DNA of 8,103 nt from a virus (Duplodnaviria > Heunggongvirae > Uroviricota > Caudoviricetes), in IMG/VR virus record IMGVR_UViG_2541047428_000018; one strand, 5' to 3'. The notes below the pieces were generated by a model. The model was not told the DNA's origin. It did no database searches and saw only the letters and a program-made list of their open reading frames with translations. Every line of letters starts with the position of its first letter. Positions within the stretch are counted from its first letter, which is position 1. The position numbers and the translations under genes were made by a program. Below, piece by piece: positions 5,987 to 6,562 of the stretch.

Positions 5987-6071
5987 GGATGCCGCGCCAG
6001 CGGCATGTAGGGGCAGCTCACAAAACGGAAAAAATTGTACGCTAAGCCTCGCCAGGTGAACTGAATTCATT

Positions 6072-6095
6072 CCGATATGGGAATTCCCATATCGG
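6072..6095. repeat. Perfect 24-bp palindrome CCGATATGGGAATTCCCATATCGG
   Basis: Read directly: reverse complement of 6072-6083 equals 6084-6095, centred on GAATTC. A second GAATTC sits 9 bp upstream (6063-6068). Located about 135-160 bp upstream of mok/hok. Confidence 0.85.
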
Positions 6096-6230
6096 GCGAA
6101 AACGGTTTGCTGTAACGGCAGAGTTAAGTAGGATTGCTGCGGGTGCTTGAGGCTATCTGCCTCGGGCATGAACACCAACGGCAGATAGATAAAAGCCCCA
6201 CCCGACTATAAATCGAAGTGAGGCCCCTAT

Positions 6231-6443
6231 ATGCTCGTCACATATAGATTGCCTCTTACGGACCGAAAGGTCAAGGAGAAGCAGGCTATGAAGCAGCAAA
6301 AGGCGATGTTAATCGCCCTGATCGTCATCTGTTTAACCGTCATAGTGACGGCACTGGTAACGAGGAAAGACCTCTGCGAGGTGCGAATCCGAACCGGTCA
6401 GACGGAGGTCGCTGTCTTCGTAGACTACGAATCTGAGAAGTAA
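6231..6443 (+). CDS. mok: Mok-like (modulation of killing) reading frame, in-frame N-terminal extension of hok (70 aa)
   Basis: MLVTYRLPLTDRKVKEKQA followed by the Hok sequence; resembles MokC (MLNTCRVPLTDRKVKEKRAMKQHKAM...) as I recall it. Same frame and stop as hok. Confidence 0.55.
   Translation: MLVTYRLPLTDRKVKEKQAMKQQKAMLIALIVICLTVIVTALVTRKDLCEVRIRTGQTEVAVFVDYESEK
6288..6443 (+). CDS. hok: Hok/Gef family type I toxin (51 aa), HokD-like
   Basis: MKQQKAMLIALIVICLTVIVTALVTRKDLCEVRIRTGQTEVAVFVDYESEK: single transmembrane helix plus the conserved KDLCEV and TEVAVF motifs of Hok/Gef. Ribosome-binding site AGGAG (6274-6278) 9 nt upstream. Followed by a bulged GC-rich stem-loop (6451-6472) without a U-tract, consistent with the structured 3' end of hok mRNAs. 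Confidence 0.88.
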   Translation: MKQQKAMLIALIVICLTVIVTALVTRKDLCEVRIRTGQTEVAVFVDYESEK

Positions 6444-6562
6444 GAGACCAGGCGGGGGAGTAATCTCCCGCCACCTCTGATGTGTCAGGCATCCTCAACG
6501 CACCCGCGCTTTACCATACTGAAAATGCTGTTTGAATGTTCATCTCTGAAAGAGGACTATGA

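Follow-up and report, generated by a model that had tools for sequence, protein, structure and literature searches.

The hok/sok (parB) locus of plasmid R1 combines a weak hok promoter, tac/fbi and ucb/dcb pairings in the hok mRNA, translation of hok that is coupled to mok, and an antisense Sok promoter with a 17-bp spacer in the mok 5' region. All of these features, coupled translation as a prediction, recur in the Caudoviricetes record IMGVR_UViG_2541047428_000018 of IMG/VR, a stretch of 8,103 nucleotides referred to here as the window. We conclude with high confidence that the module at approximately 6106-6505 of the window is a complete, ordinary hok/mok/sok type I toxin-antitoxin (TA) module of a lambdoid prophage. 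R1 differs in being plasmid-borne, in encoding a distantly related toxin, in having its own terminator after fbi, and in carrying mok in a different frame from hok.

The hokW/mokW/sokW locus of Stx2 phage 933W and of the Sakai prophage Sp5 has been demonstrated experimentally to be a type I TA system with an antisense sokW RNA transcribed from its own promoter (PMC8621323). Position 6451 is the sole difference between it and the window in the hok coding sequence and the 117 nt that follow. Both loci lie in lambdoid phages, have an in-frame mok and the same tac and fbi, lack a terminator after fbi, and are followed immediately by a YgiW/YdeI-like gene. The window differs in its central leader (Sok body and promoter), which is a different allele without a 21-nt segment of the Sok hairpin and with another 5' tail. 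It also differs in its Sok promoter (TTGACC-17-CAATCT, against TTGCCT-17-TAACCT for sokW) and in its upstream neighbor, which is paa in the window and L0139/L0140 in 933W.

A second relative is the paa-linked 'hokD' allele of PPompW-type prophages and of prophages of O157 and non-O157 Shiga toxin-producing Escherichia coli (STEC), E. coli E2865 being an example. Here paa, the spacer, the hok promoter, the leader, and sok with its promoter are the same as in the window, as is the prophage backbone (cI, cro, ydaT, a dnaT-like gene, P, DUF1627, a fimbrial pseudogene and paa). From 6383 onward, however, the window follows 933W. Its Hok C-terminus is VDYESEK rather than the TAYEPEE of E2865, it lacks the post-fbi terminator of E2865, and a BOF (OB-fold) gene replaces the hypothetical gene downstream.

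Two K-12 loci complete the comparison. The hokC/mokC/sokC (gef/sof) locus has the same type of Sok promoter as the window (TTGACC-17-CAnTCT, then 6 nt and a G), an in-frame mok, a similar Mok N-terminus and a similarly short Sok RNA, but is a core-chromosome locus beside nhaA that is interrupted downstream by IS186 in K-12. The Qin hokD (relF) gene, in a lambdoid prophage remnant, shares with the window the hok Shine-Dalgarno (SD) sequence and the first 17 upstream nt. Its homology to full loci ends 17 nt 5' of the hok ATG, inside the Sok -35, and the 3' end of relE begins there; the hok promoter, tac, ucb, the mok start, and sok with its -35 have been lost to the relBE operon, whereas the window has them all. 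An original prediction for this DNA had placed K-12 hokD behind relBE without mok/sok, had found no relBE here, and had called the window's arrangement more ancestral. These statements agree with our comparison: the gene upstream of hok is paa, the mok/sok/tac leader is present in full, and the window locus is thus not a K-12-type hokD/relF. Because K-12 hokD is a truncated copy, regarding the full locus as the more ancestral arrangement is reasonable. Similarity of the toxin is all that the name 'hokD', given by RefSeq to the closest relatives, expresses.

The hok and mok reading frames are real (Table 1). Hok is identical to HokW of 933W at 51 of 51 residues, to K-12 HokD at 47 of 51 and to K-12 HokC at 40 of 50, and HokW is toxic upon expression (PMC8621323). 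The mok frame opens upstream of hok, runs in frame with it and shares its stop codon, a layout also annotated for mokW/hokW in 933W and mokC/hokC in K-12. The Mok N-terminal extension, MLVTYRLPLTDRKVKEKQA, resembles that of MokC, MLNTCRVPLTDRKVKEKRA. The motif CAAGGAG, which contains the hok SD, is kept across the hok family. The earlier description of an intact Hok frame with family motifs, an intact in-frame Mok-like extension and membership of the R1 hok/sok family therefore stands, given the Pfam HOK_GEF match and the leader match that follows.

Rfam model RF01794 matches the plus strand at 6141-6290 over its full length (103.9 bits, gathering score 59, E = 2e-23). R1 hok mRNA begins with GGCGCTTGAGGC, as taken from the hok F primer (PMC1635323), and the first bases of the leader, GGGTGCTTGAGGC, are homologous to it. 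A TAnnAT or near-TAnnAT hexamer stands at the same aligned position, 6-7 nt before the conserved start GGGTGCTTGAGG, in nine of the ten relatives that cover the site, and the R1 hok -10, TATGAT, is of the TANNNT type (PMC9841398). An mRNA start farther upstream, with 5953-6140 as leader, was rejected on these grounds, as family homology and the conserved TAnnAT -10 set the +1 at approximately 6141. A 12-nt complementarity between 6003-6014 and 6223-6234, which involves sequence upstream of the hok promoter, is probably due to chance. The interval first proposed for the locus, 5989-6480, is offset. Homology to 933W begins at about 6099 and that to the wider family at the hok -10 (6129-6134), and both run to fbi at 6493-6505, leaving 5989-6098 outside the hok module.

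Although RF01794 is named 'sok antitoxin', what it models is the sense hok leader, beginning at the 5' end of the mRNA and ending at the hok AUG; the true Sok is encoded inside the match on the other strand. Since the window's match is on the plus strand and ends at the hok AUG, the strand of the hit should not be taken as that of Sok. If used for automated annotation, the model would give 'sok' the wrong strand and an excessive length.

Table 1. Coordinates of the hok/mok/sok module and of flanking genes in the window
Feature	Position	Strand	Details
hok promoter	6106-6134	+	-35 TTTGCT 6106-6111; 17-bp spacer; -10 TAGGAT 6129-6134; read from sequence
Predicted hok mRNA 5' end and tac element, GGGUGCUUGAGG	6141-6152	+	RF01794 match starts at 6141; homologous to R1 5' end
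ucb box, AAGCCCCAC	6193-6201	+	6195-6201 pairs with mok SD region 6218-6224 (full-length); 6193-6199 pairs with tac (truncated)
mok SD, GAGGC	6220-6224	+	7 nt 5' of ATG 6231; read from sequence
Sok target hairpin	6227-6247	+	Stem CUAUAUG/CAUAUAG holding mok AUG; loop CUCGUCA 6234-6240; in both folds
mok reading frame	6231-6443	+	70 codons; in frame with hok, common stop (open reading frame list)
Predicted Sok antisense RNA	6239 to ~6188	minus	~49-55 nt; 5' tail GACGAGCAU, one long hairpin, U-run
sok promoter	6246-6274	minus	-35 TTGACC 6274-6269; 17-bp spacer 6268-6252; -10 CAATCT 6251-6246
dcb box, GCCUC	6251-6255	+	Pairs with mok SD GAGGC in truncated mRNA
hok SD, AAGGAG	6273-6278	+	9 nt 5' of ATG 6288; overlaps Sok -35 on opposite strand
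hok toxin gene	6288-6443	+	51 aa; Pfam HOK_GEF (PF01848) 79.8 bits, cutoff 22, E = 1e-22
Stable 3' hairpin, GGCGGGGGA-GUAA-UCUCCCGCC	6451-6472	+	Inverted repeat; in both folds; kept across family
fbi element, CCUCAACGCACCC	6493-6505	+	Pairs with tac; 49 nt after stop (45-56 nt in relatives)
CI-like repressor	854-1261	minus
Cro	1338-1565
Solute-binding-fold protein, Pfam SBP_bac_11	5194-5952		Annotated as AcfC-family adhesin Paa in near-identical prophages
YgiW/YdeI-type OB-fold (BOF) protein	6563-6907		Downstream neighbor of hok

The Sok promoter and the Sok RNA

The antisense strands of the window and of characterized loci were aligned on annotated 5' ends, namely those of sokW (933W, 9 nt inside mokW) and sokC (K-12, equivalent place). 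In the window this places the Sok start at G6239, 6 nt after the -10 and homologous to both annotated ends. The window promoter, TTGACC-17-CAATCT followed by 6 nt and G, has the same plan as those of K-12 sokC (TTGACC-17-CACTCT, 6 nt, G), 933W sokW (TTGCCT-17-TAACCT, 6 nt, G) and the R1-type locus (TTGCGC-17-TATCCT, 7 nt, A). Its -10 retains two critical bases, A(-11) and T(-7), which fit the TANNNT core (PMC9841398), and has C instead of T at -12. Scored by eye against the consensus hexamers, the window reaches 7 of 12 positions, as do R1 and sokC, and sokW reaches 6 of 12.

Promoters of this type are used. The SokC 5' end is an exact match to an RNA 5' end mapped in vivo (PMC2912661), and among the clusters obtained by p19 capture, mokC/sokC double-stranded RNA is one of the most abundant (PMC7373196). 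Mutations in the sokW promoter abolish protection against HokW, and northern blots show the SokW RNA (PMC8621323).

When 5850-6650 was scanned on both strands for strict sigma-70 consensus promoters, none was returned. The same scan also missed the Sok promoters of the R1-type plasmid locus, K-12 sokC and 933W sokW, and its null result in the window is therefore uninformative. The overlaps of the Sok promoter bear on this. Its -35 lies on the hok SD, and its -10 lies on the dcb box and on the 3' arm of the Sok target hairpin. Because of these overlaps the promoter cannot drift toward consensus; Sok promoters are consequently poor matches, and reading them by consensus gives false negatives.

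The original prediction had recognized the TTGACC element on the minus strand (plus 6269-6274), had judged that it lacked a properly spaced -10, and had found no convincing minus-strand promoter. The -35 is confirmed. As to the promoter as a whole, that view holds insofar as a strict scan detects none, and fails insofar as a promoter with sokC-like geometry occupies the homologous position of the family. The statement about the -10 was incorrect: CAATCT lies exactly 17 bp downstream, has A(-11) and T(-7), and is at the right distance from the homologous start. The choice then offered among a non-canonical promoter, a different mode of regulation, and a derepressed or inactive locus loses its basis, given canonical 17-bp spacing and near-identity to sokC, whose RNA has been mapped. 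Other -10 candidates 3' of TTGACC (AATCTA at 18 bp, ATCTAT at 19 bp and TATATG at 22 bp) were rejected for want of a T at -7 or because the spacing is impossible, and the homologous start agrees with none of them.

Comparison was extended to 38 further loci from Escherichia, Shigella, Kluyvera, Citrobacter, Pantoea, Photorhabdus and other genera, cited here by our locus numbers. The antisense block CCTTG(A)CC...GTAAGAGGC(T)AnnCT is kept throughout. TAAYCT stands at 17 bp in the TTGCCT lineages, and TAATCT at 18 bp in several of the TTGACC lineages (L019, L020, L027 and L031). In the window lineage and in the hokC lineage, the latter represented by five Escherichia species, the T preceding the A is absent, giving TTGACC-17-CAnTCT. 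Within the block, the window and L027 (TTGACC-18-TAATCT), a locus in a metagenome-assembled genome (MAG), differ by deletion of a single T only, which takes the spacer from 18 to 17 bp. Judged from these alignments, the deletion would have exchanged the -12 T for the optimal spacer. Its occurrence in the hokC and prophage lineages alike may represent recurrent tuning of Sok output.

The same deletion could be taken to have crippled the promoter. Under this explanation the loss of the -12 T (GGCTAATCT to GGCAATCT) leaves little or no cognate Sok, and Hok is held off by the tac/fbi lock together with the weak hok promoter, or by Sok from other copies. CAATCT matches the -10 consensus at only two of six positions, nothing in the region passes the consensus scan, and L027 is the closest relative with a better -10, so that the window's state does look like a deletion. 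However, shortening of the 18-bp spacer to the optimal 17 bp is part of the same event, and K-12 sokC, with the same -35, the same spacing and a CAnTCT-type -10, is expressed, its RNA having a mapped 5' end. Across 587 complete E. coli records the 86-nt segment 6215-6300 shows identity of at least 99%, and every row with full leader coverage among the matches listed carries a hok toxin annotation for the overlying gene, free of any pseudogene flag. Such conservation, together with the unflagged hok genes, points to a stable allele rather than to a lesion private to the window. Repression by Sok in trans is conceivable, as E. coli genomes carrying such loci hold a median of two and up to ten hok-like places, but the 5' recognition tails differ by allele (GACGAGCAUAUAG in the window, GUUCAGCAUGGAU in SokW), which argues against cross-repression. 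We consider a crippled promoter improbable and prefer a Sok promoter that would be active in the manner of sokC.

The antisense RNA predicted from this promoter has the expected form. Its 5' end was set by homology to the annotated sokW and sokC and its 3' end by the U-run at 6194-6191. It folds into a 9-nt single-stranded tail, a hairpin and the U-run (-21.4 kcal/mol, z = -4.25), and SokW and SokC show the same architecture when folded likewise. The predicted Sok is shorter than SokW because its hairpin lacks 21 nt; short hairpins of this kind also occur in Citrobacter and Photorhabdus loci. An antisense sok is thus recognizable in the window by its features, a minus-strand promoter in the mok 5' region and an RNA with tail, hairpin and U-run. 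On the sense strand, the loop of the target hairpin, CUCGUCA, begins with a YUNR motif (CUCG), and YUNR U-turn loops play a role in hok targets. The single-stranded 5' tail of Sok is complementary to this loop and to the 5' arm of the hairpin. By analogy, Sok would be transcribed and would repress hok in the window allele, both points being predicted from sokW and expression also from sokC.

Photorhabdus genomes (L037-L049 and L033-L043) hold several hok/sok copies each, with the Sok promoter TTGCCT-17-TAATCT. The short Sok hairpin of L039 (Photorhabdus kayaii) is almost identical to that of the window, CCCCATCCGACTATAAATCGAAATGAGGCC against CCCCACCCGACTATAAATCGAAGTGAGGCC, and this likeness suggests that the Sok hairpin module moves between genera. 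HokD/HokW-like sequences with 91-100% identity were also found in assemblies assigned outside Enterobacterales (L021, L029 and L056; Acinetobacter idrijaensis, Xanthomonas pisi and a MAG). They lie on contigs of 275, 431 and 2995 bases and look like contamination of these assemblies by E. coli or phage DNA.

The hok mRNA switch and its 3' end

Minimum free energy (MFE) folds were computed for the full-length mRNA (6141-6520) and for a truncated species cut after the 6451-6472 hairpin. In the full-length fold (z = -6.3), 6141-6152 pairs with 6493-6505. This is the tac/fbi lock, the long-range pairing that had been suggested as a check on the locus, and it is present. The duplex has an energy of -21.5 kcal/mol (z = -3.3 against shuffled 3' untranslated regions). 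In the Pantoea locus (L044), tac reads GGGCGC and fbi GCGCCC, against GGGUGC and GCACCC in the window; this change is compensatory. The truncated fold instead contains the tac/ucb and mok-SD/dcb pairings, the alternatives known from R1. An RNAalifold consensus of 14 diverse leaders recovered the same stems, with compensatory changes in four pairs. The tac/ucb stem is kept in this consensus with one compensatory change of U-A to C-G, and the GAGGC/GCCUC stem does not vary among the leaders. No pair of the consensus structure is missing from the window; this, with the full-length RF01794 match, establishes that its leader is related to known hok leaders.

By homology with R1 hok/sok and 933W hokW/sokW, the module would operate as follows. 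The weak promoter TTTGCT-17-TAGGAT would produce a stable hok mRNA from near 6141. In the full-length molecule tac and fbi would be paired and ucb would sequester the mok ribosome-binding site, making the mRNA inaccessible to both ribosomes and Sok. Slow 3' trimming to the hairpin at 6451-6472 would remove fbi, upon which tac would pair with ucb and the mok SD would enter the dcb stem; this truncated form would be translatable, as in R1. Translation of mok from 6231 would then carry ribosomes into hok (6288), yielding a membrane-damaging peptide of 51 aa. While the prophage is normally transcribed, a short, unstable Sok would be made from the minus strand by TTGACC-17-CAATCT, extending from G6239 to near 6188. 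Its 5' tail would pair with the loop and 5' arm of the mok-start hairpin, blocking translation of mok and hence of hok, and the duplex of Sok and hok mRNA would be marked for RNase III. The elements of this scheme and their homology to characterized loci are read directly from the window; transcription from the Sok promoter, its strength, mRNA processing and toxicity in this locus are predicted from sokC, sokW and R1.

The 3' hairpin at 6451-6472 is likely to be the 3' end of the processed, active hok mRNA, by analogy with R1, where the truncated mRNA is protected by a 3' hairpin (PMC9841398). Between 6505 and the start of the BOF gene at 6563, 58 nt after fbi, no intrinsic terminator was found; the first on the plus strand is at 6923-6945. 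Most relatives (E2865, L027, L019, L023, L031 and R1) have a hairpin and T-run right after fbi, and 933W, like the window, does not. Since the functioning hokW/sokW of 933W also lacks it, the missing terminator is a variable feature and does not exclude function.

It is possible, if unlikely, that the hok mRNA, having no terminator of its own, reads into the YgiW/YdeI-like stress gene and ends at 6923-6945, tying toxin activation to turnover of the stress message. In that case the hok mRNA and the mRNA of a periplasmic stress protein would be one transcript, and simple 3' trimming would not suffice to remove fbi, which would require endonucleolytic cleavage or the decay of the cistron downstream.

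Several points weigh against a fully working module. The activity of the Sok promoter in this leader allele is predicted from homology, and its -10, with C for T at -12, matches TATAAT at two of six positions; Sok output could therefore be lower than in R1 or 933W. A literature search for transcripts of the paa-linked allele found only the hokW-sokW study and no transcript data for this exact leader allele. The lack of a post-fbi terminator makes the 3' end of the primary hok transcript, and with it R1-style 3' processing, uncertain. In published tests summarized in a bioRxiv preprint, the chromosomal hokA, hokB and hokC loci did not mediate post-segregational killing (10.1101/2025.08.07.668861), and possession of all elements is thus no proof of biological activity. 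That last result, with the inactivation of K-12 copies by insertion sequence (IS) elements or rearrangement, would suit a locus that is intact but inert, a relic comparable to the hok loci on the chromosome of laboratory E. coli, playing no role in maintenance, induction or defence; this we regard as very improbable, because the window locus has no IS element, frameshift or truncation, all of its regulatory boxes are intact, and the identical toxin and its own sokW leader function in Sp5 as a TA pair with an effect on phage release upon mitomycin C treatment (PMC8621323).

Mosaic origin and prophage context

The window locus is a recombinant of the paa-linked 'hokD' allele and the 933W hokW allele. 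Over 5953-6288 it shows 100% identity to the paa-linked locus that E2865 and other STEC prophages carry, and over 6288-6560 it equals 933W hokW with its downstream sequence except for one base, 6451. Both parents share the sequence at the crossover, which is placed between 6272 and 6383. The product carries the HokW toxin with the leader, mok N-terminus, sok and Sok promoter of the PPompW/O157 type, and Sok stays perfectly matched to its target because it is encoded in cis. The identical chimera was found neither in IMG/VR, searched with the 191-mer 6240-6430, nor in 5,426 complete E. coli genomes, searched with 6215-6560; taken separately, both halves are common. The mosaic shows that hok/sok alleles recombine in the conserved 5' part of hok. 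Such recombination swaps toxin C-termini and 3' untranslated regions and leaves each leader with its own cis-antisense Sok.

The locus is an already known kind of element and a common allele. Its annotation should read as a full hok/mok/sok module with an antisense RNA, and not as a bare "hokD" toxin gene or as a toxin without antitoxin; beyond correct annotation it has little importance.

From the open reading frame (ORF) list, Pfam matches and annotated relatives, the window was identified as the early region of a lambdoid prophage. Cro is followed, in order, by a YdaT-family protein, a DnaT-like replication protein, a lambda-P-like protein and a DUF1627 protein. The ORFs 4464-4775 and 4781-4942 (approximately 4464-4942) match the position of a fimbrial-protein pseudogene that is frameshifted and has an internal stop in related prophages (L002 and L009). 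The hok module is placed between the adhesin gene paa and the YgiW/YdeI-like OB-fold gene, which makes a virulence-associated gene its upstream neighbor. A tRNA scan of the window found none, and apart from RF01794 the only Rfam match was to snoRNA sR2 (20 bits, E = 0.45), which is noise.

At the end of paa, positions 5959-5972 form a hairpin with a T-run that resembles a terminator; another hairpin, rich in GC (ATGCCGC-GCCA-GCGGCAT), comes next at about 5988-6005. Just 5' of the hok -35, and beyond the stretch with homology to 933W, positions 6072-6095 form a perfect palindrome of 24 bp, CCGATATGGGAATTCCCATATCGG. It has no T-run after it on either strand and could serve as a binding site for a protein or, between paa and hok, as a barrier to transcription.

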